From: an uncultured Alphaproteobacteria bacterium
Lineage (GTDB): Bacteria > Pseudomonadota > Alphaproteobacteria > RF32 > CAG-239
Direction: 5' to 3'
DNA: 64,000 nucleotides
Assembly (NCBI GenBank): GCA_902464275.1
Contig: CABQIK010000007.1
Location: 8,613-72,612, forward strand
Position numbers and translations under genes: made by a program. Below are positions 797 to 64,000 of the stretch, piece by piece. Under the pieces are notes generated by a model that saw only the letters and a list, made by a program, of their open reading frames with translations, searched no databases and was not told the DNA's origin. Each line of letters opens with the position of its first letter. The stretch's first letter is position 1.

Positions 797-1474
797 TTAG
801 TAGTACTTCCATGCTACTACGTTGTTAGAACCGGTAGAGCTACAAGCGTTAACCGCATCGCTAACAGTCATCGGAGCTTTTTTGGTTGCTGAAACAGCGC
901 CCGGAGAAACGACACATGTGTCGGCCGCACACGCTAAGCCGGTATCACCGGTATCTGTTTTAATAGCCTTAGCTTTAGTTGCTGAATTGGCTACATCCTT
1001 ACCGGCAGCAATAGCAATCAAGCCTGATGCCTGACCGGAACCCCAGTCACCGGTTGCAATGGTAACGCAAGCTTCTGACGGCAAACCTTCATAAGTAATA
1101 ACGAAAGCTTCAGAACCGGAGTCACCCGCTGATCTTGCTTCGTCTGATTCAATAGTAACAGCGCCACCGAAAGCGTTTTTAATTGAATAGTTTGAAGCAT
1201 AGGTGTTGTTTGACGCAGCAGCATACATATCATTCGGTACAACGCCGAATTTAATAGCCTGACCATTGTTCAAACCGGCATAGTCACCTTGTGATGAGAA
1301 CAAGGTACGGAGGTTAGCAACGAGCATGGAAACCTGATCAGTAGTTTTGTTGATTTTATATTTGTTCATAGCTTTTGAATAACCGGCAATACCGCCAACC
1401 GACAAAACGCCGATAATCGCCAATACGCCGAGCATTTCAACCATGGAACGACCGTTTTCATTAATGTGTTTCAT
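797..1474 (-). CDS. type IV pilin-like protein, paralog 1 (prepilin-type N-terminal cleavage/methylation domain)
   Basis: N-terminus MKHINENG|RSMVEMLGVLAIIGVLSVGGIAGYSKAM has Gly(-1) and Glu(+5). It aligns with the PilE N-terminal helix. The C-terminal region has Cys pairs. RBS AGGGGA sits 7 nt upstream of the ATG at 1474, and the longer track ORF start is unlikely. Confidence 0.7.
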   Translation of the reverse strand: MKHINENGRSMVEMLGVLAIIGVLSVGGIAGYSKAMNKYKINKTTDQVSMLVANLRTLFSSQGDYAGLNNGQAIKFGVVPNDMYAAASNNTYASNYSIKNAFGGAVTIESDEARSAGDSGSEAFVITYEGLPSEACVTIATGDWGSGQASGLIAIAAGKDVANSATKAKAIKTDTGDTGLACAADTCVVSPGAVSATKKAPMTVSDAVNACSSTGSNNVVAWKYY

Positions 1475-8922: not shown

Positions 8923-11900
8923 TAATTACTCTCCGCTGAAAACAAATCTTTAACCGAATTGGGACTGAACACTGAAAGCGGATTTATACTGATTTTCGGC
9001 TCATGCACACTGCCTTTAATTTTATAGCTGACCGCAAATACCGTGCCGTCTTTGCCGGCCAAAACCGACCCGACCACCGGAATTTTGCCGATTAAAGAAT
9101 TTAAACTGTATGCCGGCGAAACAATCCCTTTAATATCAAGCTCTTTGCTTGCTTTTTTGTATGAACCGCTGCCGGTAAAACCGATAACATTACCAAACAT
9201 TTTAGCGTCTTTAATATAAAGCACTTTATTTTTATATTCAAACGGCGCGTCAAAGTGTGAAAACGTTAAACCCTCGCCGCGCAGCAAATCCAAAATTCCG
9301 CTGAATGACGCCATGGTTAAAAGCTTAGCCAGCAGCGGCGTGTTATGAATACTGAAATCGCGGATTTGCGCATGCCCGATAAATTCTTTATTGCGGTTGC
9401 GTTTGGCCTCAATTTTCAAAATACCGCCGGTCATATCATCATAAAGACGCAAAACCCTTAGCGTGCTGCCGGCATTATTACTGTCAACCGAAAGCAAATA
9501 CTCACCATCAGGACGAGGAACATAATCAAGTTTAAGCTTAATTGATTTATCTGAGCCGTAGTTGCCCACCATATGCACCTCGTCAATACCTATTTTAGGC
9601 TTTAACAGCGCGCTTCCGGCAAAATTTTTAATCGGCGTATCGGGGTTGGTCCACAAACTGTTCACCGCAATAAACACTTCCGTATTCGGCACATTGGTCC
9701 AATCGTCATCATCGCTTTTGCTATTGCCTGATGCGGCTTTATTTTCCGTGGCGGCAAAAAGCTCGGTTAAGTCATAACTGTTTCCGCTGACGTTAATTTT
9801 AACTTTTTTACCCTTGTCGGCAAATTCAATTTTAGCCTTAGCCGATGTTTTAGGCCCGTGAATACGGCTAATATTAATAACTTTAAGCTCGCCCGATTTA
9901 TTAAGCGTAATATCGCCGCTTAAATCAAAATCAGATTTATGCAGACTGAACGCGCTGATTTTGCTTATTTTACTGCCGTCAAGCTCTAATTGCGCTTTAA
10001 CATTTCCGGGCACTCCGCTGGCTTTTTTAAACCCTAAAAAGCTGTAATCTATCGCCGCATTTTTCAAATCGGCATCAACCGCAAGCGTGGTTTTATTGTT
10101 GTTCAAAACCGTTAAATTTGCCGTTACATCAGCATATCCGTTAATATACGGCGCATTCAAAAGCGCGGTGTCAACCCCTAGTTTTTTCTTGGCCGCATCA
10201 TTTAGCACAAAATTAAGCGTGCCTTTATTTTTATAAGTTTTATCCTTAAAAAACTCATTAAAGGCAATTTTAAGCGGAATACCGTCAAAATCAGCGTCAC
10301 CCTTAACTTCAAAACCTTTATCGTTCACTTGCAAAAACAATTTTTCCGCCGTTAAATCTTTGCCGTCCAAAGCGTTCGGATATTTTAAATTTTGCAAATC
10401 GGCCTTAACATCAACTTTAATTTCATCAGGCGACAAATCTTGATACAATTCAAAATTAAGCCCCAAATCAATTTCAACATCACCGCTGACAGCATCCGGA
10501 TTAATGCCTATTTCTTTGGCATAGTTAAGCGGCGGATTGTCAATAAAGCGCAACGCGTCGCTCACGCTTGAATTGCCTTTAATGTTAATATCAATAAAGT
10601 TGTTATATTTATTTAAGTCATACAAACGAACATTGCCGCCGGTGATGATAACGCCGTCTGAAACACCCTTATCCACCTTAATATCAATGTCAGAGGTTGA
10701 AAATTCAGCCACCCCGTAAACATTGTTTACCACCGGCATGCCTTCAAGATATGAAATATTGCTGTCAACCACATCTGCCCTGCCTTTAAGGCTTAATAAA
10801 TCTATGCCTTTAGCCGCTTGGTCATAACCGAACGTAAACACAAATTTGCCGTTTTCGGCATATCCGCCAAACAAATTTTGCTTGCACCATTCCCAAGCCG
10901 GTTCTGCCAAATACCGCGGCCAAAACTTTGATAAATCGTCTAACTTAAACTTGGCAATATCTGCTTCAAATACAATTTTTAAATCACTCAGCGAGCGCTC
11001 AAACACATATTTTTTATAGCCTGAAATATCCAAACTGAGTTTGGTTTTTTGCCCGCCGACCGTAAAATCGGCATTTGACACCTTAACCGAGTTTAAGCCG
11101 CTGTCTATATTGCCGTTAAGCACAAAGGCATCAATGGCATAATTAAATTTGTCGTCATCGTTAAAAATAACCTCGCCGTCACTGCCTTTAATCTGAAAAC
11201 GCAAATCTTCAAGCGCGGCGTCCAAGCTGCCGATTAAATCGCGTTTACCGGCCATAATATCGTCAAAATCAATCAGCGCAAGCACATTACCGTCAACCGG
11301 AACATCAATTTTAGGCATATTTTCGCTGATATTGCTGATTAAATCTGAAAGCATTAAGTCCGCAAACGAAAAATCAAGTGCCAGATGATTATTGCTTATT
11401 TGGTATTTTCCGCCCAAATTTAAGGTCGCAAGCCGGTCTTTTAAGTCAAGCAATCCGCCGATTCCTATTTCCAAATTGTTAATATTGCGGTCAAAATCAA
11501 ACTTAACGTCTTTAAAGCTCCACTTGCGCCCTAAATCAACTTCATGAAACTCAACTTCGGCATTATTAATATTAATTTCATTAATAAAGCTTTCAGGATA
11601 AATATCATCATCAGAGTTAAACCGTTCCAAAAATCCTTCAAACCAATCAACGTAGGCCTGAACCTTCTTTTTGTTAATTTCGTTGGTTTTATCTTTTTCC
11701 ACCCCGTAAGTCATAAAAATTGCCACTTGCGGATTTTCAACCGTCACGCTGCTCGGCGCCACAATACCTTTAAGCAACGCCCGCACGCTGAACGAAAGCG
11801 AAAGTTTCGGCGCTTTAATTGAAAATTTATCATCTGCCGCGCGCAAACTGACATTATTGGCAATAATTTTTATCGGCTGAATTGAGCGCACCAACTCCAA

Positions 11901-12098
11901 ATTAACCTCGCCGATATTCATGGAATATTGCTGTTCATCAGAGTTAAGCGCTTGCATAATATATGGTTTTAAAAACGGCACCGACAGCGGCCCCTGATAC
12001 AAAATCCACAGCAGATACAAAAGCGAAAGTAACAAAGCCACGCCTAAATAATCCATGGTTTTGCGCATATAATACAATCTGCCGGAAATTTTTTTCAT
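8922..12098 (-). CDS. AsmA/TamB/YhdP-like large envelope protein
   Basis: 1058 aa. N-terminal membrane anchor, then a long beta-rich repetitive domain typical of AsmA-like lipid-transfer proteins. Confidence 0.55.
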   Translation of the reverse strand: MKKISGRLYYMRKTMDYLGVALLLSLLYLLWILYQGPLSVPFLKPYIMQALNSDEQQYSMNIGEVNLELVRSIQPIKIIANNVSLRAADDKFSIKAPKLSLSFSVRALLKGIVAPSSVTVENPQVAIFMTYGVEKDKTNEINKKKVQAYVDWFEGFLERFNSDDDIYPESFINEININNAEVEFHEVDLGRKWSFKDVKFDFDRNINNLEIGIGGLLDLKDRLATLNLGGKYQISNNHLALDFSFADLMLSDLISNISENMPKIDVPVDGNVLALIDFDDIMAGKRDLIGSLDAALEDLRFQIKGSDGEVIFNDDDKFNYAIDAFVLNGNIDSGLNSVKVSNADFTVGGQKTKLSLDISGYKKYVFERSLSDLKIVFEADIAKFKLDDLSKFWPRYLAEPAWEWCKQNLFGGYAENGKFVFTFGYDQAAKGIDLLSLKGRADVVDSNISYLEGMPVVNNVYGVAEFSTSDIDIKVDKGVSDGVIITGGNVRLYDLNKYNNFIDINIKGNSSVSDALRFIDNPPLNYAKEIGINPDAVSGDVEIDLGLNFELYQDLSPDEIKVDVKADLQNLKYPNALDGKDLTAEKLFLQVNDKGFEVKGDADFDGIPLKIAFNEFFKDKTYKNKGTLNFVLNDAAKKKLGVDTALLNAPYINGYADVTANLTVLNNNKTTLAVDADLKNAAIDYSFLGFKKASGVPGNVKAQLELDGSKISKISAFSLHKSDFDLSGDITLNKSGELKVINISRIHGPKTSAKAKIEFADKGKKVKINVSGNSYDLTELFAATENKAASGNSKSDDDDWTNVPNTEVFIAVNSLWTNPDTPIKNFAGSALLKPKIGIDEVHMVGNYGSDKSIKLKLDYVPRPDGEYLLSVDSNNAGSTLRVLRLYDDMTGGILKIEAKRNRNKEFIGHAQIRDFSIHNTPLLAKLLTMASFSGILDLLRGEGLTFSHFDAPFEYKNKVLYIKDAKMFGNVIGFTGSGSYKKASKELDIKGIVSPAYSLNSLIGKIPVVGSVLAGKDGTVFAVSYKIKGSVHEPKISINPLSVFSPNSVKDLFSAESN

Positions 12099-12101
12099 TT
12101 G

Positions 12102-12986
12102 TTAAAGCCACTCCAAAATATCGCGGTAATTGTGCAAACTGAACAAACCGTCATGAGGAGCGCCCTCATAAATTATCATTTTTTTAGGCTCGTTTGCCTG
12201 CCTGTAAAGCTTTTCAGCCAACGCGGGCGGTATAACTTTATCATCTTTTGTCGCCATAATCAAAATCCGTGTCTTGATTTTACCAATCAGTGCTAAATTA
12301 TTATATGTATCTTTCATCAACAAATCAAGCGGCACAAGCTTAATTGCGCCGAATGTAACATAACTTTCGGCGGTTTCCGACAAACTGGTAAACGGGACCT
12401 CTAAAATAACCGCGTTAAAATTGCCGTTATGTTGCTGATTTTCCGCCGCATATAACGCTGTATAACTTCCGAGTGAAATACCGTAAATTATAATTTTATC
12501 ATTGCTGAAACCAAGCTTGTTTAAATATTTAACTGCATTTACGGCGTCTTGTTCTAAATATTGTTGTTTAATTTTTTTACCCTGTCCTCCAAAACCGCGA
12601 TACTCCGGCATTAAAACCGAATATCCGGCATCGGCAAGCGGTATCATTTTATGATAATAATGCTCCAAATTGTACGAGTTGCCGTGCAAAAACACAATCG
12701 CCTTGCCGTTATTTTGTAAAGTTTTATTCAAATACAGCCACGCCGTAACTTTGCCGCCATTTTTACCGTAATCAAAATACGTAACTTCTTCAGCGTTAAA
12801 GCCGTGTTTGCGCGCCTGATTTATATCCGCCGGATAGTCATAAGCTCCGTAAAAAACATATTCCGGAACAAACACCACCGCCGCGCATAAAAGCGCATAG
12901 GCAGCCAAGCAAATAATCATAAATATTTTAAGCATTTTCAGCATCGCCGACCTTTCCCGCCAAAGCGGCTGCCAAAAACATATCAA
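12102..12986 (-). CDS. alpha/beta hydrolase
   Basis: N-terminal TM/signal. GISLGS nucleophile elbow (GxSxG). Confidence 0.7.
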   Translation of the reverse strand: MICFWQPLWRERSAMLKMLKIFMIICLAAYALLCAAVVFVPEYVFYGAYDYPADINQARKHGFNAEEVTYFDYGKNGGKVTAWLYLNKTLQNNGKAIVFLHGNSYNLEHYYHKMIPLADAGYSVLMPEYRGFGGQGKKIKQQYLEQDAVNAVKYLNKLGFSNDKIIIYGISLGSYTALYAAENQQHNGNFNAVILEVPFTSLSETAESYVTFGAIKLVPLDLLMKDTYNNLALIGKIKTRILIMATKDDKVIPPALAEKLYRQANEPKKMIIYEGAPHDGLFSLHNYRDILEWL

Positions 12987-14035
12987 TATCGCCGTCCAAA
13001 ACCGCTTTATAATCTGAGGTTTCGGCGCCGGTGCGCAAATCTTTTACCAAACGATACGGCTGCAACACATAAGAACGGATTTGATACCCCCAACCGTTTT
13101 CACCTTGCGCATCTCGCTGTTCTTCCGCCACCGCGGCACGTTTTTGCAACTCGCGCTCATACAAGCGGGCTTTAAGCATTTTCCATGCGTTATCGCGGTT
13201 CTGAAATTGCGAGCGCTGACTTTGGCTCTGCACCACAATTCCGGTCGGCAGGTGCGTAATACGCACGGCGGAATCGGTTTTGTTAATATGCTGTCCGCCC
13301 GCGCCGGAAGCGCGATAAGTATCAATCCGGCAGTCAGCCTCGTTAATATTAATTTCAATGGTATCGTCAATCACCGGATAAACTCCGACTGAAGCAAAGC
13401 TGGTATGCCTTCTGCCGGCGCTGTCAAACGGCGAAATTCTTACCAAACGATGCACGCCGCTTTCTGATTTAAGCCAACCGTAAGCATTATGACCTGAAAT
13501 TTTTACGGTGACTGACTTAATTCCGGCAACTTCACCTTCGGTTTCTTCCTGATATTCGGTTCTATAATTGTGCTGTTCCGCCCACCGCATATACATTCTG
13601 AGCAGCATTTCCGCCCAATCCTGCGCTTCCGTGCCGCCGCTTCCGGCATGAATTTCCAAATACGCGTCATTAGCGTCAACCTCTCCGGAAAGCAAAGCTT
13701 CAAGCTCGGCATGTTTGGCCTGTTTTTGCAACTTTTCCAAATCAGCGTAAATTTCCGCCTGTAAATTTTCATCATTGTCTGAAAGTTCGGCCATTTCCGC
13801 ATAATCGTTTACGCTTTTTTCCATATCGCGATAAGCCGTCAGCGAACTTTCCAAATTATTTTTTTCGCTCAAAAGCTTTTGCGCATTGGCGGCATTATTC
13901 CACAAATCGGGATTTTCGGTTAAAGAATTAAGCTCTTCCAGCCTGAGGACGGCATTATCATAATCAAAGATACCTCCTCAGCAATTCTAACGATTGCTTA
14001 ATTTCATCAATTAAATTAACAAACTCAGCCTTCAT
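12928..14035 (-). CDS. prfB: peptide chain release factor 2, with programmed +1 frameshift
   Basis: The frame-0 ORF starts ATG at 14035, reads MKAEFVNLIDEIKQSLELLRRYL and stops at UGA (13966-13964). It is preceded by the SD-like AGGAGG and the slippery CUU UGA. The +1 frame continues into the 325-aa ORF that carries the GGQ motif. Confidence 0.9.
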
Positions 14036-42090: not shown

Positions 42091-42192
42091 GGTGGTTTAT
42101 ACAACTTATGCACAGCTTTGGACTCGTAAATATTGCAAAAAAAAAACGCGAGCTAAAATCTTCTTAAATTTAACAATTTGAGGAGATTTTTA
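42091..42192 (+). promoter_or_regulatory. orphan copy of the conserved pilin-gene upstream cassette (promoter/5' leader)
   Basis: About 100 nt, near-identical to the sequence 5' of pilin paralogs 2 and 3 (...ggactcgtaaatattgcaaaaaaaaaacgcgagctaaaatcttcttaaatttaacaatttgaggagatttt). Here it is followed by an unrelated short ORF. Confidence 0.6.
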
Positions 42193-42330
42193 ATGTTTAT
42201 CCAAAATATACTAGCTAAGCTTGCGGATGGTGAGGCAGATACGACGGGATTTTGGAGCGACTTGTACACAAAAAGGTACACGAGCGAGAAAATCCCTAGC
42301 AGCTGCCCGCTAGACGCAAGCGTAAAATGA
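42193..42330 (+). other. short ORF (45 aa) or small RNA body driven by the orphan cassette, ending in the 46-nt repeat element and a terminator
   Basis: ATG is placed exactly where the pilin ATG sits in the other cassette copies. It is followed by the 46-nt element (42329..42374) and the hairpin ATACTCAATC-ataa-GATTGAGTAT (42388..42411). Confidence 0.25.
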
Positions 42331-42418
42331 GCTTACAAGCAAGACCGAACCCCGCAGGGGTGAGATTCCCCTCTCGGTTAAAAAAAATACTCAATCATAA
42401 GATTGAGTATTTTTATAA

Positions 42419-42917
42419 TTGGTGGAGCTGAGGGGGCTTGCAGAGTCACAAAAATGTCCGGTGGACATTTTTTGCCGGCAAGCATCAGCTGCTGTTAGCG
42501 AGCGATGAGCCGACAGGCGATAAGAGCGAACGTTACAGCTGCTTGACCGCAGCGCAGTTAGCGACTGCCCTTTGGGCAGAGCTTACAAGCAAGACCGAAC
42601 CCCGCAGGGGTGAGATTCCCCTCTTCTAAAGACACAAAAGCACTTAAGCAAAAGCCTAAGTGCTTAAAAATTGGTGGAGCTGAGGGGGCTTGCAGAGTCA
42701 CAAAAATGTCCGGTGGACATTTTTTGCCGGCAAGCATCAGCTGCTGTTAGCGAGCGATGAGCCGACAGGCGATAAGAGCGAACGTTACAGCTGCTTGACC
42801 GCAGCGCAGTTAGCGACTGCCCTTTGGGCAGAGCTTACAAGCAAGACCGAACCCCTAGGGTTAGATTCCCCTCTTAAAAATAAAAGCACTTAAGCAAAAG
42901 CCTAAGTGCTTAAAAAT
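42419..42917 (+). repeat. two tandem direct repeats of about 250 bp, each starting with a copy of the 3' 17 nt of tRNA-Ala
   Basis: Units 42419..42670 and 42671..42916 are over 95% identical. Each begins TTGGTGGAGCTGAGGGG, which matches the reverse complement of the tRNA-Ala 3' end at 42918. Each contains hairpins (AAAAATGTCC-ggt-GGACATTTTT and CTGCCC-ttt-GGGCAG) and the 46-nt element GAGCTTACAAGCAAGACCGAACCCC(GCAGGGGTGAG)ATTCCCCTCT. Each ends with the hairpin AAGCACTTAAG-caaaag-CCTAAGTGCTT. Confidence 0.85.
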
Positions 42918-42993
42918 TGGTGGAGCTGAGGGGAATCGAACCCCTGACCTCCTCAATGCCATTGAGGCGCTCTCCCAACTGAGCTACAACCCC
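42918..42993 (-). tRNA. tRNA-Ala (anticodon GGC)
   Basis: Minus-strand sequence GGGGTTGTAGCTCAGTTGGGAGAGCGCCTCAATGGCATTGAGGAGGTCAGGGGTTCGATTCCCCTCAGCTCCACCA. G3:U70 Ala identity pair, anticodon loop AUGGCAU, encoded CCA. A hairpin plus T-run terminator lies downstream on the minus strand. Confidence 0.9.
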
Positions 42994-48583: not shown

Positions 48584-48652
48584 ATGAAAATTTGGCATTG
48601 GATAGTTTTACTGGTGTTGGCCTTTGCGCTGATTATCACTTTTGCATATTAG
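48584..48652 (+). other. possible small hydrophobic peptide ORF (22 aa, MKIWHWIVLLVLAFALIITFAY)
   Basis: Strong RBS AAGGAGAAAAGCT before the ATG. A single TM-like peptide. Sits just upstream of pilin cassette copy B. Confidence 0.2.
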
Positions 48653-48750
48653 GCATACAACTTATACACAGCACGGACTCGTAAATATTGCAAAAAAAAA
48701 ACGCGGAGTAAAATCTTCTTAAATTTAACAATTTGAGGAGATTTTAGCTC
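48651..48750 (+). promoter_or_regulatory. conserved pilin upstream cassette, copy B
   Basis: Shares about 95% identity with 42091..42192 and 60511..60622. Contains TTGCAA...TAAAAT promoter-like hexamers and an inverted repeat GAGCTAAAATCTTC / GAGGAGATTTTAGCTC that spans the RBS. Confidence 0.6.
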
Positions 48751-49356
48751 ATGAATACACAATCAGGTCGGTCTATGGTGGAAATGCTCGGCGTTCTTGC
48801 TATTATCGGCGTGCTCAGCGTCGGGGCTATCAGCGGTTACAGCAAAGCAATGATGAAGTACCGGCTTAACAAATATTCTGAACAAATTAACACTGTTATC
48901 AATGCCGTTGCTCGTAATGCCCAGAGCTTTAACAATATGGAAAACGGAACTGACTTAACTGAAACTTTTATCAAAATGGGAGAAATCCCGACTGATATGA
49001 CAAAACCGAATAACTTCACCGGTATATATGATGTTTTTGGGCAAAAATGGCGAATTTTTATCGGTTCAACCGCCACAACAATCTTTTTATCAATGACCGG
49101 CTCATCATTAAAAACTTTATCTGCGGATAATTTAGCCATTTGCCAAACCACATTTACCGTAGCTAAAGAAAATGCCGATAGTATCAGATATATAGAAACC
49201 ATCAGCAATGCCGGAACGGAAAATAAAATTGATAAGGCTTGGTTTGGCGACGCCTATTGCCACCAATCAAATTGCCTGCGAAATTTACTATGGACGGTAT
49301 TTACAATGCCTGCACTGCTCACAAAGGCGTCAATGAACCTATATATTTTCAAATAA
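48751..49356 (+). CDS. type IV pilin-like protein, paralog 2
   Basis: MNTQSG|RSMVEMLGVLAIIGVLSVGAISGYSKAM class III signal and N-terminal helix. C-terminal disulfide loop GDAYCHQSNC. Confidence 0.72.
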   Translation: MNTQSGRSMVEMLGVLAIIGVLSVGAISGYSKAMMKYRLNKYSEQINTVINAVARNAQSFNNMENGTDLTETFIKMGEIPTDMTKPNNFTGIYDVFGQKWRIFIGSTATTIFLSMTGSSLKTLSADNLAICQTTFTVAKENADSIRYIETISNAGTENKIDKAWFGDAYCHQSNCLRNLLWTVFTMPALLTKASMNLYIFK

Positions 49357-49374
49357 CATGGGATAAATAAAACT

Positions 49375-49406
49375 TAAACCCCTGCTTCGGTTAAAAAGCA
49401 GGGGTT
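49375..49406. terminator. bidirectional terminator between pilin 2 and pnp
   Basis: AAACCCCTGCTT-cggttaaaa-AGCAGGGGTTT followed by a T-run. Confidence 0.7.
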
Positions 49407-49427
49407 TATTTTTAAGCTTAACAGCGA

Positions 49428-57878: not shown

Positions 57879-59699
57879 TCACATTGTCAGCTTAAACGGC
57901 GGCAAAACTGCATCATATTTAAGCCTGAACAACAAATTAACCTCTTCCGGAAGTAAGCCGCTCTTTTCCATAATCTGCATAGCCGGCAAACCGCCGCCAT
58001 TTTCTAGGTAGCGATTAAGCTTTTCCTGCAAGTTAGGGCGGCGCGGATAATACATCATGCCGAAAGTATCGCCTTGCTTAATACCGGCAAGTTCTTTAGC
58101 TTTTTGGAGCGCTTTTTCAAACCCGCCCAATTCATCAACCAAGCCGACTTTAACCGCGTCTTGCCCAAGCCAAACTCTGCCGCGGGCAAGCTTATCCATT
58201 TGTTCATCACTTAAATTACGAGCTTTGGCAACTTTACCGGTAAAATCTTTGTAAACATTATCAAGCGAACGGTTAAACACTGCTTTTTCCGAGGCATTGA
58301 ACTTGTGATTGGCACTCAAAACACCGGAGTTTTTACCATATTTTATTTCGCCCCAGTTTATATCAAGTTTTTTCCATAATTCGCTAAGCACCATTTTACC
58401 GCCCAACACGCCTACCGAGCCGGTAACAGTCGCCGGTTCCGCCACAATATAATCGCCGGCAATCGCCACAAAATATCCGCCGGAAGCCGCATAATCGCCC
58501 ATTGAAACCACAATCGGCACGCTCTTCCATTTTTTAAACCGATTTAAGGCGTACCAAATTTCTTCTGAGGCAACATAACTGCCTCCCGGACTGTTAATCC
58601 GCACAATTAAAGCCTTAATATTTTTATATTTGCTCAATTCTTTTAACTGCGCCACCACGGTTTCAGAACCAAGCATAGCCTCGCGCATCGGAGCATTGGT
58701 ACTGGTACCGCTGTCAATAGTGCCTTCCAACACCAACATAGCAACCAACGGAATATTGTCTTGTTCATAATCGTTTATGGTTGACATATAGTCTTTGATT
58801 GAAATTGATTTAGCCTGATAGCGGCGTTCCAAAAAGCTGGTCATTTCCTGCTTATAGCCGATTTTATCAATCAATCCCGTTTCCAACGCATCACCGGCGA
58901 AAATCGGGGCTTTATCAATTAAATTTTTCACCCTTTCCGTGCTCAAGTGCCTGTTTTCGGCAATACCTTCAACCAACTGATTAAACAAACTGCCTCCAAG
59001 CTTGGAAAGTTCTTCTTTATAAGCGGGGGTAAACCCTTTGCTGACAAGCGAGGCAACCGCGGTTTTATATTCATAACGAGTATAAAATTCCGGTTCAACT
59101 CCAACTTTATTCAAAATACCCTTAAAAAACGGAACTTCAATGTTCACGCCGGTCATACCGATATCACCGCCTGATTGAAGCCAAATTTCATCAAAATATG
59201 TTGCCAAATAATATTCTTTGGTTCCCTGTCCGAATGAACCCATAGTGTTTGAAAATATATGAGCCTCTTTACCTTTGCTCTTAAAATAAGATATTGCCTG
59301 CGAAACATCTTGCATTTGTGCCAACCCTAAAGGCGACATATTCACGGTTGCCGAAATGGCTTTAACCCTGTCGTCATCGGCCGCCGTATTAATCGCCCGC
59401 ACTAAGTCAAACACTGAGTACACTGATTTATCGGCAAACTCGGCAAAAAAATCATCGCTTCTGAGCTCGGCATAATTATCATCAAAATTAATTTCCAACA
59501 CCGCGGAATCCGGAATAGTAACTGTTCTTGAGCGAGGGCTGATAATGCTTAAAACCCCGAGTAAAATTAAAATAAATACCACCCCGAAAACGGCAAAGGC
59601 ATACACTATTGTTTTCAACAAAAGTCTGATGCCTATTTTTTTACGTTTATCCATATCTGCATACAATGTATTCATTCCGACCTCATTCATTGTTTTCAA
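57879..59699 (-). CDS. sppA: signal peptide peptidase SppA (protease IV), 67K type
   Basis: Two S49 domains. GDYAASGGYFVA. Confidence 0.85.
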   Translation of the reverse strand: MKTMNEVGMNTLYADMDKRKKIGIRLLLKTIVYAFAVFGVVFILILLGVLSIISPRSRTVTIPDSAVLEINFDDNYAELRSDDFFAEFADKSVYSVFDLVRAINTAADDDRVKAISATVNMSPLGLAQMQDVSQAISYFKSKGKEAHIFSNTMGSFGQGTKEYYLATYFDEIWLQSGGDIGMTGVNIEVPFFKGILNKVGVEPEFYTRYEYKTAVASLVSKGFTPAYKEELSKLGGSLFNQLVEGIAENRHLSTERVKNLIDKAPIFAGDALETGLIDKIGYKQEMTSFLERRYQAKSISIKDYMSTINDYEQDNIPLVAMLVLEGTIDSGTSTNAPMREAMLGSETVVAQLKELSKYKNIKALIVRINSPGGSYVASEEIWYALNRFKKWKSVPIVVSMGDYAASGGYFVAIAGDYIVAEPATVTGSVGVLGGKMVLSELWKKLDINWGEIKYGKNSGVLSANHKFNASEKAVFNRSLDNVYKDFTGKVAKARNLSDEQMDKLARGRVWLGQDAVKVGLVDELGGFEKALQKAKELAGIKQGDTFGMMYYPRRPNLQEKLNRYLENGGGLPAMQIMEKSGLLPEEVNLLFRLKYDAVLPPFKLTM

Positions 59700-60399
59700 G
59701 TAATTGTTTTACAAAAACCGGCAAAGTCTGCCCGCTTTTACCGTAAATATGCTCATCAAACAAATAATTATTTGATGTATTTTCTAAATTAAACTCCATA
59801 GTGTGTGCGCCATGCGCCTTAGCGACTTTGACAAATCCGGCGGCAGGATAAACCACGCCTGAAGTTCCGACAGAAATAAACAAATCACACTCATTAAGCA
59901 AGCGTTCAACTTCATTCATGCACAGCAAAGATTCGCCGAAAAACACAATATTCGGCTTCATCATACCGGCAACGCCGCAGTTAGAACACACTGTTTGCGT
60001 ATCAACATCGCCCCATGTTTCCAAAATATGCCCGCAATTTAAGCAAACCGCCTGATTAATTTGCCCATGGATATGATAAACCTTTTTGCTTCCGGCTTTT
60101 TCATGCAAAGTATCAACATTTTGGGTAACAATGCTGACATTACCGCTATATTTTTGTTCCAATTCCGCCAATGCCAAATGCGCGGCGTTCGGCTTTGCCG
60201 CCAAAAGCTCCGGCTTCATTTCATTATAAAAGTCATGCACATATTCCGGATTTTTTGCAAAGGCTTCAATCGTCGCCACATCTTCAACTTTGTGATTATT
60301 CCACAGCCCGTTGCTGCTCCTGAAAGTTGCCAACCCCGATTCTGCCGAAATTCCGGCGCCGGTCAGCACCAATATATTATGATATTGTTTATCCATCAT
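59683..60399 (-). CDS. cobB: NAD-dependent protein deacylase (sirtuin, CobB-like)
   Basis: LTGAGISAESGLATFR, Zn-ribbon CxxC...CxxC, and a catalytic His in HIHG. Confidence 0.85.
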   Translation of the reverse strand: MMDKQYHNILVLTGAGISAESGLATFRSSNGLWNNHKVEDVATIEAFAKNPEYVHDFYNEMKPELLAAKPNAAHLALAELEQKYSGNVSIVTQNVDTLHEKAGSKKVYHIHGQINQAVCLNCGHILETWGDVDTQTVCSNCGVAGMMKPNIVFFGESLLCMNEVERLLNECDLFISVGTSGVVYPAAGFVKVAKAHGAHTMEFNLENTSNNYLFDEHIYGKSGQTLPVFVKQLLENNE

Positions 60400-60510
60400 C
60401 TATCCTCTTGATATTAACATACTTATTTTTTTATCCCGAGGCAAGCAATTAATCAAATTAATAAAAAGTATTTCAAAGGTATCGCCAACTCTTCTCTATG
60501 GAAGGATGCC

Positions 60511-60622
60511 GAAGACGGGGTGGTCTTTTGCAACTTATGCACACCCCGGACTCGTAAATATTGCAAAAAAAAAACGCGAGCTAAAATCTTCTCAAAACCA
60601 ACTTTTGAGGAGATTTTAGCTC
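60511..60622 (+). promoter_or_regulatory. conserved pilin upstream cassette, copy C
   Basis: Same element as copies A and B. The inverted-repeat arms are conserved while the loop sequence differs (caaaaccaactttt versus taaatttaacaattt). Confidence 0.6.
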
Positions 60623-61237
60623 ATGAATACACAATCCGGACGTTCAATGGTTGAAATGTTAGGGGTACTCGCGATTATCGGGGTTTTGAGCGTTGGCGCT
60701 ATTTCCGGTTATAGCAAAGCTATGTTCAAGTACAAACTTAACAAACACTCTGAACAGATGAACACGGTAATTAATGCTGTTGCCCGCAACGTACATAGCT
60801 TTGATAACATCAAACAAGATGAAACTTCTTTAACTTCATATTTTATCAAAATGGGTGAAATCCCGACTGAAATGATAAAAACAAACAACAATAACTATGT
60901 ATATGATATTTTCGGACAGCAGTGGCAGATATACTATAGCGAAGGTTTAATATATTTACTCTCATATAGTGAAAACGGTTCATCATTTTTATCTTCAAAC
61001 TCTTCTGACAGTCTGGCAATTTGCCAAAACATTTTAACTACCTCTAAAGAAAATTCTGATAATATACTCGTAATTGCGGCGACTTTAGGCGAGAGCACTA
61101 ATCGCTTATATGGTGATAAATATTGTTCTAGTAATGAAAAATGCCTTAAAAACTTAGCTTTAGACGATATCTATACTTTCTGCGCTGAAAACACAAAAGG
61201 CGGCATAGCGCTATTTGCTATTACTTGGCAACGCTAG
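60623..61237 (+). CDS. type IV pilin-like protein, paralog 3
   Basis: The N-terminal 55 aa are nearly identical to paralog 2. The C-terminus diverges but retains the GDKYCSSNEKC disulfide loop. Confidence 0.72.
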   Translation: MNTQSGRSMVEMLGVLAIIGVLSVGAISGYSKAMFKYKLNKHSEQMNTVINAVARNVHSFDNIKQDETSLTSYFIKMGEIPTEMIKTNNNNYVYDIFGQQWQIYYSEGLIYLLSYSENGSSFLSSNSSDSLAICQNILTTSKENSDNILVIAATLGESTNRLYGDKYCSSNEKCLKNLALDDIYTFCAENTKGGIALFAITWQR

Positions 61238-61312
61238 CAACTGCTTTAAAAAATGAAAAAGCACACGTTTCACAACGTATGCTTTTGGGTTAAGACCTAA
61301 GACCAGGAAGGA

Positions 61313-61765
61313 TTATACTTCGTAAAAATCCTCCACCGGAATTTTCAAGACTATTTTTTTGACATGGGTTGATCCGTTCACCGCCATACCCGGCATGTGT
61401 GCGAGGTCTGGACCGATGATGCAGGCTTCGCCGGCACGAAGAAGGACAGTATCTTTGACCTCTCCGGTCATGAACATGATGTCCTTTGTCTCATCGTACT
61501 CCTGCTCTACCTGAAACTCGTCCGTGATAGGAGCGAAGTGGATGAGTTCTGTACCGGACACGATGATTTGAACGTCCACCATTTTACGATGCGCCTCAAA
61601 GCGAGAGGTGAGTTTTGTCTCATACTCTTCCGCATTTGCGAACCGTCCACCGTCAAAATCGTAACGCTTAGGGACGAAATTCTCCATGAGTCTCTCAACA
61701 AGTTGTAGCATATCTGCCGGAACTTGACCTTGCTTAGCAAGGATTTTTACATTCAAGCTATCCAT
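61313..61765 (-). CDS. YhcH/YjgK/YiaL (DUF386) family protein
   Basis: C-terminal IGPDLAHMPG.....HVKKIVLKIPV matches the YhcH pattern F.P.D.H.PG...IRKIV.K. GC content is clearly higher than surrounding DNA. Start set at MDSLNV because a promoter lies inside the longer track ORF. Confidence 0.5.
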   Translation of the reverse strand: MDSLNVKILAKQGQVPADMLQLVERLMENFVPKRYDFDGGRFANAEEYETKLTSRFEAHRKMVDVQIIVSGTELIHFAPITDEFQVEQEYDETKDIMFMTGEVKDTVLLRAGEACIIGPDLAHMPGMAVNGSTHVKKIVLKIPVEDFYEV

Positions 61766-61787
61766 AAAAATAAAATTTGCAATTATG

Positions 61788-61816
61788 CTTATACCGCGTA
61801 TGGACTTTTTTGTCAA
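61788..61816 (-). promoter_or_regulatory. sigma70-like promoter TTGACA-N17-TATAAG for the YhcH-like gene
   Basis: On the minus strand, TTGACA (61816..61811) and TATAAG (61793..61788) are separated by 17 nt, about 20 nt upstream of the chosen ATG. Confidence 0.5.
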
Positions 61817-61943
61817 TATATTTTTGCAGAAATCAGGCAATTTTATTTATATTCGTAAATTTTATGTCAAAAATTACCTGATTATTAAAAAAATACTCTT
61901 GACAAGCCGCGTTTAATGGCGTATACAACACTCACTTTTACAT

Positions 61944-62020
<77 letters not shown>

Positions 62021-62178
62021 ATAAAACTAAAATACGCCCGTTCGTAAGAATGGGTGTGTTTTTGTTTTAAATGTGTTGCAAGGAGTTGAACCAACGAAAA
62101 AAGTTGGTTCACTACAAGCGAAAGGCAGGAGCAACATTAGCCGATTAGTACAGCATAATTACATCAACCGGAGAAAAA

Positions 62179-62670
62179 ATGAATAATATAAGAAAAGCCA
62201 CAATCAATGATGCTTCAATTATTGCAGAGATAAGTATTGATAGTTGGAAAAGTGCTTATAAAGGGCTCTTGCCGCCCAAATTGTTGCTAAACAGAAAAGC
62301 CGATAAAAAAAGAATAACCGCTTGGAAAGATAATATCGCTAATAGCGATTATACCGTATTGGTTTATGAACAAAACAAAGTTTGCGGCTATTTATGGGCA
62401 GGTAAAAAAAGAGATAAAATTGATATTCCTTATGAAATATATGCCATATACGTTAGTCCGCAATACCAAAGATTAGGGATTGGACAAGCTCTAATCAATG
62501 AATATAAAAAATTAATCAACAATCAGCCGTTTTATTTATATATGTTAAAAGGGAATGTTCCCGCCTCTGCTTTTTATAAAAAGATGGGAGGAAAAGAAAA
62601 CGTATATTACAATAAAAAAATTTCTGTTAACGAATATACCATTGAAGAAGAAATTTATATTTTTGAGTAA
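62179..62670 (+). CDS. GNAT family N-acetyltransferase
   Basis: 163 aa. Acetyl-CoA binding motif QRLGIGQALI. Very AT-rich. Confidence 0.7.
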   Translation: MNNIRKATINDASIIAEISIDSWKSAYKGLLPPKLLLNRKADKKRITAWKDNIANSDYTVLVYEQNKVCGYLWAGKKRDKIDIPYEIYAIYVSPQYQRLGIGQALINEYKKLINNQPFYLYMLKGNVPASAFYKKMGGKENVYYNKKISVNEYTIEEEIYIFE

Positions 62671-62706
62671 TAAAAATTCGTTTATTGATGGCAAAAAGCG
62701 CTATAT

Positions 62707-63429
62707 CTATTTTATGGTAATGCTTGGATTATCTTCTTGGTTTGCAATTATTATTCTCCTGCCACCGGAAAAATACATAATAAACTTTTCCAAATCATAA
62801 TCATCTTCATATGAATCAACAACAAGTGATATATCTTCTAACTCTGAATCAATCATAAAATCAAAGATATGAGAAATATCGTTATATACGTTAGTATCAT
62901 TATAACCGGGTTTCCATTCCGTAATATTAACATCTTTGGTTGAAAAAAGATTTAAATAATTATGGCTGTTTAATGATACATCATATTGATATGAGCCATA
63001 AATTTTAATTTTTAAAAACTGATTATCAAAAACAAAACCGAAATCTTCAAAATAAACCTTCCGATAATTATCAAACATAACCGGACAATCGCTTGTAAAT
63101 TCAGTATGCCAAATGCTTTTATTAACAATGTATTTTAGTTTTTTCCCGACTAAAGCTTGTTTTAATTCAGGCAAAACATTTTCCAATTCTCTTGCATCAG
63201 CAGATACATCTTTTTTGAGCGGAACATCTATCTTTTTGCTGTCATCAATCTTAATTTCAACACACATATTAAATCCTTTTATGATTGTGCTAATTGTAAA
63301 ACATAAATCTCTCAAACGCAAGAAAATATCTGTAAAGTTATTACCCGACACTTTAATCTGCATGCTGAGTGTATCAGCCACTTGCACAACAAATATAAAC
63401 AGTGATTTTTGCCTTTTATATAAACCCAT
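62707..63429 (-). CDS. hypothetical protein
   Basis: AT-rich ORF between the GNAT gene and the recombinase. The start is uncertain because several in-frame Met codons are present. Confidence 0.35.
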   Translation of the reverse strand: MGLYKRQKSLFIFVVQVADTLSMQIKVSGNNFTDIFLRLRDLCFTISTIIKGFNMCVEIKIDDSKKIDVPLKKDVSADARELENVLPELKQALVGKKLKYIVNKSIWHTEFTSDCPVMFDNYRKVYFEDFGFVFDNQFLKIKIYGSYQYDVSLNSHNYLNLFSTKDVNITEWKPGYNDTNVYNDISHIFDFMIDSELEDISLVVDSYEDDYDLEKFIMYFSGGRRIIIANQEDNPSITIK

Positions 63430-63518
63430 CTATACCGATTACACCAACGACACTCCCGAAACCATCAGGCAAATTGATAGAAATAATATTGTTTATGAGG
63501 AAATGTGCGAGGAATAAA

Positions 63519-64000
63519 TTATTCAGTTAAGATTACATTATTAATAAAATTTCGCACGGTTTCTCTGTCTACGTGTAATTTTTTGGCAATAGCTGTTTTG
63601 CTTTCTCCGTTAGCTAACAACTTTTGTATAATAGATTCCTTGCCTGAAAGTTTTAAATATGAGCTTTTTGTGCCATAAGGTCTACCAAGAATTTTCCCGG
63701 AAGCACGTCTCGCGGCTAAAGCTTCTTTTGTGCGCTGACTTATTAAATTTCGCTCTAATTCAGCTGTTAGCCCAAATGCAAAAGCTAATATTTTCCCCTG
63801 AATTCCTGCATCTAAGCGATAATTGTCTTTTATGGTCCAAATGTTAGCACCGATGTTCATACAATGGTTTAATATTCCCATTATTTGTAATAAATCTCTT
63901 CCCAATCTAGACAATTCACTGGTAATAAGCATATCTCCTTTTTTAATCCTTTTTATAAGTTTGCCTAATTTCCTTTTTTGTAAATCTTGGCGAGAGCTGA
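63519..64000 (-). mobile_element. serine recombinase (resolvase/invertase family), N-terminus beyond window end
   Basis: The frame stays open upstream of the track start and reads ...KKGDMLITSELSRLGRD (resolvase catalytic-domain motif). It also has ELERNLISQRTKEALAARRASGKILGRP and a C-terminal HTH KTAIAKKLHVDRETVRNF. Confidence 0.8.

Follow-up and report, generated by a model that had tools for sequence, protein, structure and literature searches.

The DNA analyzed here (the window; a 64-kb stretch, i.e., 64,000 nucleotides (nt) of contig CABQIK010000007.1 from an uncultured alphaproteobacterium of the GTDB lineage RF32; CAG-239) carries three type IVb-class pilin genes, which are labeled P1, P2 and P3, while L-numbers are used for related loci and strains. 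P2 and P3 are part of a subfamily that is large, old and diversified and whose members have an invariant N-terminus and a constrained common cassette upstream of the gene. These genes probably constitute a type IVb pilin repertoire, in which an expanded subfamily of self-contained units provides alternative subunits for surface variation. The three open reading frames (ORFs) were found where a first-pass annotation of this DNA had placed them:

797..1474, minus strand: P1, type IVb pilin gene; leader MKHINENG, mature protein RSMVEMLG..., 225 amino acids (aa), four cysteines
48751..49356, plus strand: P2, pilin paralogue; 201 aa as encoded, frameshift near the 3' end
60623..61237, plus strand: P3, intact pilin paralogue; leader MNTQSG, mature protein RSMVEMLG..., 204 aa, four cysteines

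Pilin identity and family diversity

The identification as type IV pilins made in the first-pass annotation was confirmed by a glycine at position -1, a glutamate at +5 and a hydrophobic alpha1 in register with that of TcpA and, for P1, by Pfam matches and the fold. The motif G|RSMVEMLGVLAIIGVLSVG, with Arg at +1 and Glu at +5, is common to P1, P2 and P3, and a shared N-terminus was indeed found, the residues from Gly-1 to about +30 being identical in all three ORFs with the stretch G-RSMVEMLGVLAIIGVLSVG-x-I-x-GYSKAM. A six-frame motif scan found exactly these three copies of the N-terminal motif in the window. P1 matches the Pfam families PilS (4.5e-14) and Bundlin (5.8e-13) and, among the sequences of PDB structures, S. 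Typhi PilS (1q5f) and V. cholerae TcpA (8uhf). As Arg9 of P1 aligns to Met1 of TcpA and Glu13 to Glu5, P1 is expected to be cleaved after Gly8. With the AlphaFold (AF2) model of P1 (predicted local distance difference test, pLDDT, of 81), Foldseek retrieved CofA of enterotoxigenic Escherichia coli (9iuf; E 6e-7, TM 0.63-0.68) as well as TcpA and S. Typhi PilS, the E-values ranging from 6e-7 to 4e-4, and homologues of P1 carry the NCBI name 'type 4 pilus major pilin'. P1 is a conserved major-pilin-type gene with a predicted PilS/bundlin/TcpA/CofA-like fold.

The AF2 model of P3 (pLDDT 82) shows a lollipop architecture composed of a 54-residue alpha1 (residues 7-60) and an alpha/beta domain, and the succession of its secondary-structure elements is that of the P1 model. 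Moreover, hhalign aligned the P3 family to the P1 family with a probability of 99.9% over residues 3-107. P1 departs from P2 and P3 after about residue 90-107, and in BLASTP the similarity between P1 and P3 stops near residue 90. The three C-terminal domains had been described as unrelated, which applies to P1 only; P2 and P3 share 55% identity from end to end (E 2e-65), and their bodies are therefore homologous. A small C-terminal loop, C-x4-5-C, is present in all three proteins as had been reported, P2 having only three of the four family cysteines.

Type IVb pilins are characterized by a variable residue at position 1, a size of ~200 aa, the absence of Pro22 and the presence of glycines in alpha1N (PMC10710030). 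V. cholerae TcpA, CofA/LngA of enterotoxigenic and BfpA bundlin of enteropathogenic E. coli, and PilS of S. Typhi and plasmid R64 show the same Gly-1, Glu+5, size of ~200 aa and Gly-rich alpha1N as the proteins described here. Gly-1, Glu+5 and a hydrophobic alpha1N of ~20 residues were found in P1, P2, P3 and in 122/122 relatives, the mature proteins have 195-217 aa, position 22 is Ser/Ala instead of Pro, and glycines are located at positions 8, 14, 19 and 23. The arginine following the cleaved glycine, which had been pointed out as unusual, is real and occupies +1 in all 122 of the 122 family members found across 1.4 Mb of related loci; as a new value at a position known to vary in type IVb pilins, it does not break with this class. 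P1 shows the type IVb fold and homology in full, P2 and P3 in part, i.e., in the hhalign alignment and in the order of structural elements. In contrast to the known type IVb pilins, Arg+1 is invariant, the C-terminal half of P2/P3 has no match in the PDB and the leaders, which comprise 6 aa in P2 and P3, 8 aa in P1 and 6-8 or up to 92 aa in the family, differ from the usual length of about 13-30 aa.

Searches returned 7877 homologues (E<1e-3) with P3 and 7979 with P1 as query. For a census of the cassette, metagenome contigs were scanned for exact matches to 24 nt of its sequence; this search for further copies, which the first-pass annotation had recommended, yielded 84 more, nearly all ahead of family pilins, with 46 contigs coming from the single sample ERZ1034928. 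Where a unique copy is followed by enough sequence, the cassette leads in frame into a family pilin in 64 cases; 2 further copies are broken and 8 have no pilin core, including three that represent the orphan locus of the window's strain group described below. Many contigs end at the cassette, as they would at a repeat, and the invariant cassette and N-terminal coding sequence account for such assembly breaks in these metagenome-assembled genomes (MAGs). Allowing for split contigs, about 40 distinct cassette-linked genes are present in ERZ1034928, which is in line with the window carrying three cassettes in 64 kb. The 55 full-length cassette-linked pilins have a median pairwise identity of 39%, an invariant stretch of the first ~35 residues and mostly four or six cysteines. 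The P2/P3 subfamily is lineage-specific and greatly expanded, with an invariant class III signal and alpha1 (G|RSMVEMLGVLAIIGVLS, Glu5), first ~105 residues homologous to P1 and a hypervariable, surface-exposed C-terminal half. The organization of a conserved head and a variable body, from which a variable pilin repertoire had been proposed, was thereby found to extend far beyond three genes; the accompanying assignment to a major pilin plus minor pilins is one option only.

It is quite improbable that these genes encode non-pilus proteins, i.e., surface or secreted ones, which only borrow the class III signal for membrane anchoring or processing. Families with a prepilin N-terminus in Planctomycetes and archaeal binding proteins bearing class III signals are precedents for such a use, and the very large number of paralogues, the P3 body without a structural match and the absence of machinery from the window would be in line with it. 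However, the homology to type IVb pilins continues past alpha1 through the alpha-beta loop and the first strands, P3 has retained the order of secondary-structure elements of P1, and Glu5, which is needed for filament assembly and not for cleavage, is invariant. The role of Glu5 was described for the toxin-coregulated pilus (TCP; PMC10710030).

The upstream cassette

A 5' cassette common to P2 and P3 had been noted before and was confirmed with a length of ~94 nt at 48657-48750 and 60530-60622; a third copy at 42101-42192 had been overlooked. The cassettes, their hairpins including the Shine-Dalgarno (SD) sequence and the terminator-like structures behind the genes are located as follows:

48657..48750, plus strand: P2 cassette with ACAACTTATACACA, GGACTCGTAAATATTGC, A10 (48692-48701), CGCGGAG and TAAAAT
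48709-48746, plus strand: hairpin of the P2 cassette including the SD sequence GAGGAG; dG -15.4, z -5.3
60530..60622, plus strand: P3 cassette with A10 (60565-60574), TAAAAT (60582-60587) and the SD sequence GAGGAG (60607-60612)
60580-60620, plus strand: hairpin of the P3 cassette, 18 bp; dG -22.9 kcal/mol, z -8.2
42101..42192, plus strand: orphan third cassette copy with an A10 tract (42137-42146)
49375..49408, plus strand: terminator-like hairpin followed by a T run, 3' of P2
61257..61286, called on the minus strand by the scan: terminator-like hairpin 3' of P3, between convergent genes

A 20-nt core of the cassette was counted three times in the window, where 0.05 occurrences would be expected by chance. 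The cassette has a sharp 5' start at ACAACTTAT and its elements are arranged in the order ACAACTTATRCACA, N5, GGACTCGTAAATATTGC, poly(A), CGCGAGC, TAAAAT and a palindrome ending with GAGGAG, the ATG being situated 8-11 nt further on; the conserved box ACAACTTATRCACA precedes TTGCA and the poly(A) tract. P1 and its orthologues do not carry the cassette and have their own, ordinarily conserved upstream region. The P2/P3 subfamily resembles monocistronic alternative subunits, each with a promoter cassette of its own. Neither the cassette nor the hairpin nor the leader elements matched an Rfam family (gathering threshold or E<=1), the only matches being chance-level ones to hairpins.

The box AACTTATRCACA, which lies outside the search key, is unchanged in 60/60 cassette copies, whereas the third codon positions of 29 identical N-terminal codons show a pairwise identity of only 51%. 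As the N-terminal protein sequence is invariant despite synonymous sites being saturated at 51%, the pilin copies are old and under purifying selection. Moreover, the cassette exceeds the synonymous sites in conservation, which points to a constraint on function or, at the least, to ongoing selection on gene conversion.

The poly(A) tract is A10 in 62 of 83 copies, A9 in 15, A11 in 4 and A8 and A12 in one copy each, and the P3 locus of the window has A10 where strain L001 has A9. The subfamily shares with contingency genes a 5' homopolymer tract differing in length among copies and strains. The hexamer 7 nt past the A tract is always -10-like (TAAAAT, TAATAT, TATAAT, TACAAT or TAGAAT), and if TTGCAA is taken as -35 element the A tract falls into a spacer of 14-17 nt, the spacer between TTGCAA and TAAAAT being 15 nt at A10. 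A standard sigma-70 scan (spacer of 16-18 nt) found no promoter inside the cassette, and a sigma-54 promoter (GG-N10-GC) was ruled out, because GGACTCGTAAATATTGC exceeds the required spacing by 3 nt.

The SD sequence is sequestered in a hairpin of 15-18 bp with the -10-like hexamer at its base (-14 to -23 kcal/mol, z -3.8 to -8.2). Across 60 copies, 85-100% pairing was observed at the inner 15 pairs, with C/U opposite G and with 14 AU-to-UA double changes, showing that the pairing of the stem with the SD sequence is conserved and covarying. At -23 kcal/mol, the P3 hairpin is stabler than typical RNA thermometers. The RNA-like covariation suggests that transcription starts upstream of the hexamer, possibly driven from an ACAAC-N18-CGTAAAT element.

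Homopolymers control surface genes, for example porA/opc of N. meningitidis and fim of B. pertussis. The vlp genes of Mycoplasma hyorhinis show the same combination of a conserved promoter and signal-peptide region, divergent exposed parts and a promoter homopolymer of variable length, and for these genes ON/OFF switching by the length of the spacer was described (PMC2268961). In contrast to vlp, the genes described here encode pilins and not lipoproteins, A10 is dominant, the tract is located in a promoter spacer or in the 5' untranslated region (5' UTR), and its switching is only presumed.

Leaders, broken alleles and exchange between strains

About 58% of the cassette-linked genes have leaders of 6-7 aa (MNTQSG, MKSENG, MYTQSG) and the rest of 19-92 aa; in the family as a whole, leaders comprise 6-8 aa or are extended by palindromic repeat modules to 19-92 aa. 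Of the long leaders, 27 are in frame and 2 are broken, and because this in-frame excess is far above chance, they are translated and presumably removed at Gly|Arg. Two types of modules were distinguished. The type A element is a rod-like palindromic hairpin of ~105 nt with compensatory changes at 22/29 pairs (30 copies), which is found in the window at ~42213-42326, in L001 at 10013-10138, in L085 at 13150-13275 and at other sites. It is dispersed in related genomes and occurs also away from pilins, as in L063 with four copies and one pilin; inside pilin leaders all three reading frames are used, differing by allele. Type B modules, with the translation ...SGLTRISRW...LDxRVKPxxD..., were seen only in or near pilin leaders, and none was found in the window. 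They are located at L002 10030-10215 and 14051-14169, at L083 19542-19636 and at many metagenome loci; an example is GTCATATTCGGGCTTGA...TCAAGCCCGAATATGAC, and one to four modules form leaders of 45-92 aa with VKPxxD. L002 furthermore carries a (GT)16 microsatellite at 9735-9766, about 150 nt upstream of a pilin cassette. Right after ATG TTT ATC YTA, L144 has A7 and L086 has A6, placing the leader of L144 out of frame; this A run is a possible translational phase switch, seen in a single case on a low-coverage contig.

Similar arrangements are known from other bacteria. In Neisseria opa, where repeats drive frame switching within the region coding for the signal peptide, repeat-containing sequence is likewise located between start codon and cleavage site, and in- and out-of-frame alleles exist; here, however, no simple short tandem repeat but palindromic modules of 30-110 nt are present, and the L144/L086 pair is the one candidate for a homopolymer frame switch. 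Rickettsia palindromic elements are inserted in frame in protein-coding genes. They resemble the leader elements in being dispersed palindromes of ~100 nt with compensatory changes, in residing in frame in ORFs and in having an alphaproteobacterial host, whereas the elements described here belong to a different sequence family without an Rfam match and were observed within genes only in pilin leaders. As the leader is discarded on cleavage, palindromic elements are probably tolerated at this site.

Two loci of the window carry incomplete units:

49287..49370, plus strand: out-of-frame remnant of the true P2 C-terminus (MDGIYNACTAHKGVNEPIYFQITWDK*) including the fourth Cys; ORF 49239-49370
42193..42330, plus strand: orphan leader ORF (MFIQNILAKLADGEADTTGFWSDLYTKRYTSEKIPSSCPLDASVK*) with a type A element at ~42213-42326 and no pilin body

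According to the sequence comparison, P2 in the window is a frameshifted allele: one A is absent after 49286 (1-nt deletion at 49287) relative to the syntenic loci L083, L085, L088 and L091, and eight syntenic strains encode the intact C-terminus ...CLRNLTMDGIYNACTAHKGVNEPIYFQITWDK. Due to the frameshift, P2 lacks the fourth conserved cysteine and the last predicted strand. The deletion is not independently confirmed, because L084, the only other carrier, is identical to the window throughout.

The orphan at 42101-42330 consists of a cassette, an ATG and a type A leader, and its homology to the pilins stops at the codon before Gly-1. Its leader is that of the intact P3 orthologue in L001, and the orphan cassette locus is also present in the strains L084, L087 and L088. 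It adjoins ~2.5 tandem repeats of ~250 bp (42329-42993) bearing copies of the 3' end of tRNA-Ala; the same repeat cuts a pilin short at the corresponding locus of L083. Each repeat comprises the 3' end of tRNA-Ala(ggc), the gene of which occupies 42918-42993 (minus strand), together with a segment on the opposite strand that resembles a tRNA T arm. The repeats resemble scars left by successive integrations at the tRNA; in Rfam they gave only a weak permuted-tmRNA-like match (E 0.36).

The pilin alleles are mosaic. At P3, L001 matches the window without a single mismatch over 800 nt spanning the pilin body and the 3' flank; its first 150 coding nt are 15% divergent, and it carries a 113-nt type A leader insertion. 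Depending on the strain, the P2 locus contains the short leader, one of two distinct long leaders, a leader that is broken, or another pilin, and the position of P3 is occupied by unrelated genes in some strains. Over 59000-63900, window and L001 form a mosaic of blocks that are either 0-2% or 10-20% divergent, suggesting that homologous recombination is frequent in this lineage generally and not confined to the pilin genes.

In the pilE/pilS system of Neisseria, pilins with a conserved N-terminus likewise differ in their C-terminal parts, copies are numerous and recombination swaps segments. This system is of type IVa and consists of one expressed locus and promoterless, 5'-truncated silent copies, whereas the pilins described here are of type IVb. 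A silent-cassette model of this kind was ruled out, since the copies carry cassette, SD sequence, ATG and a full ORF. An R64-type shufflon, in which C-terminal segments lying between short inverted repeats can be inverted and which involves an Rci recombinase, was also ruled out, as P2 and P3 have no alternative 3' segments and are followed by a terminator and then a housekeeping gene. A resolvase gene was found near pilins only in L002, where an insertion downstream of the P3-equivalent locus, absent from the window, comprises a resolvase/invertase-family gene (11992-12588), a 244-aa ORF and a second cassette-linked pilin after tRNA-Met.

The orphan cassette without a gene, the P2 frameshift and the broken leaders might also be explained if the copies are mostly decaying products of a selfish cassette/palindrome unit, the identity of the cassettes reflecting recent spread or gene conversion. 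The breaking of assemblies at the cassette as at a repeat and the dispersed nature of the leader palindromes point in the same direction. Nevertheless, this explanation is highly improbable, as 64 of ~70 copies are intact and in frame, the N-terminal protein is invariant at a synonymous identity that indicates old copies under purifying selection, and the cassette is conserved above the level of synonymous sites.

Assembly machinery, proposed mechanism and significance

The relatives are uncultured Alphaproteobacteria MAGs from human, ruminant, rabbit and mouse gut including 'Proteobacteria bacterium CAG:495', the group of which we take to be what GTDB calls RF32, and several family members are present per related genome. 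In 12 related loci, a T2SSE ATPase is encoded about 2.5 kb upstream of a family pilin. The cluster in L055 encodes a TcpQ-domain protein, a secretin, PilO, PilP, an ATPase, which was named bfpD by the Joint Genome Institute (JGI), T2SSF, a small protein, a pilin and a PilT-like ATPase. TcpQ, PilO, PilP and the BfpD-like part are shared with known type IVb systems, which differ in that here a PilT-like ATPase belongs to the cluster and dozens of dispersed paralogues exist instead of one operon-encoded major pilin. The small protein is encoded by a 229-aa ORF situated between the T2SSF gene and the pilin; it gave no family match and looks membrane-anchored. This position in the type IVb clusters is taken by a conserved ORF of ~220 aa (L055 9174-9863; L077 9198-9863), which has an N-terminal transmembrane helix and two cysteines and may encode a cluster-specific accessory or pilin-like protein. 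No prepilin peptidase was found in the L055 cluster; a Peptidase_A24 gene of 237 aa is located about 3 kb from family pilins in L030 (13349-14062, minus strand) and L045 (~13440). In L030, only the peptidase domain was recognized and no N-terminal methyltransferase domain at E<=0.001, and such a peptidase-only A24 protein may be relevant to the Arg+1 N-terminus. No relevant literature was found on the N-terminal peptide strings, on pili of RF32/CAG-239/CAG-495 or on type IVb pilins of gut Alphaproteobacteria.

The P1-type genes bear major-pilin Pfam signatures and the corresponding NCBI name and adjoin the machinery in related genomes. P2/P3-type proteins might accordingly be minor pilins or tip adhesins that are co-expressed and enter, at low level, a pilus made of the P1-type major pilin, their diversity representing many binding specificities and not switching. 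Type IVb minor pilins such as TcpB, CofB and PilV have the N-terminus of the major pilin, and some clusters (L061, L069) contain two to three tandem pilins. This alternative is unlikely, however, because P2 and P3 have the size of major pilins (~200 aa) without an extra adhesin domain, because every copy possesses a strong cassette and a terminator of its own and is located far from any machinery operon, and because about 40 copies in one metagenome are far above any known set of minor pilins.

For the P2/P3-type genes as a repertoire of alternative subunits, the following mechanism is proposed. Each unit is composed of the ~94-nt cassette, an ATG, a leader (6-8 or 19-92 aa), Gly|Arg, the pilin body and a terminator. 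The prepilins would insert into the inner membrane via alpha1, an A24 prepilin peptidase would cleave after Gly, and the subunits would be polymerized by a type IVb machine of the Bfp/Tcp/R64 kind, whose genes would lie outside the window. The paralogues would represent alternative subunits with different exposed surfaces, resulting in adhesive or antigenic variation, and the common cassette would impose one regulatory logic on all copies, with the hairpin possibly exerting translational control. The productive copy might be changed by the length of the A tract, by frameshifts and changes of leader modules, for which broken alleles including P2 were observed, or by recombination in the conserved 5' end, for which mosaic alleles were observed. 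Based on sequence features, we infer that phase or antigenic variation may proceed along these routes.

Several observations weigh against this repertoire. As had been stated before, the 64-kb window contains no pilus biogenesis genes, and neither pilus machinery nor a prepilin peptidase was found in it. When the L055 ATPase was used as query, the homologues listed were all CAG:495-like and at least 81% identical to it, with none from the window's lineage. The P2/P3 body has no Pfam match beyond the N-terminal motif, and, in the structure predictions that had been proposed, the P1 model matched type IVb pilins and the P3 model had no PDB match in Foldseek. The -10-like hexamer lies within an RNA-like hairpin, so that the A tract may be promoter spacer or 5' UTR. 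Moreover, A10 accounts for 75% of the copies and other tract lengths derive largely from low-coverage assemblies; because of these sources, the length differences could be fixed or assembly errors and not rapid switching. A homopolymer beside a promoter also need not switch, the T-tract of vpma being a documented example (PMC2268961).

Type IV pili are central to adhesion and colonization, and their variation is understood mainly from pathogens, as in the case of Neisseria pilE/pilS. Here, the case is an uncultured gut alphaproteobacterial lineage of commensal type with a very large family of full-length type IVb pilins. It offers testable handles in the constrained promoter/5'-UTR cassette, the invariant arginine at the mature N-terminus and the leaders tolerating in-frame palindromic elements, and the invariant cassette and N-terminal coding sequence can serve as markers to find and count these genes in metagenomes. 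In its most far-reaching form, the idea of a gut commensal with about 40 independently switchable type IVb pilin genes, each driven by the common cassette and toggled by poly(A) slippage, by frame changes in a repeat-built leader of up to 92 aa or by recombination in the invariant 5' end, and combined with Arg1 and a dedicated peptidase specificity, is tentative and rather doubtful. If this were true, antigenic or adhesive variation of pili would reach a scale, and follow a route, that have not been described for type IV pili.

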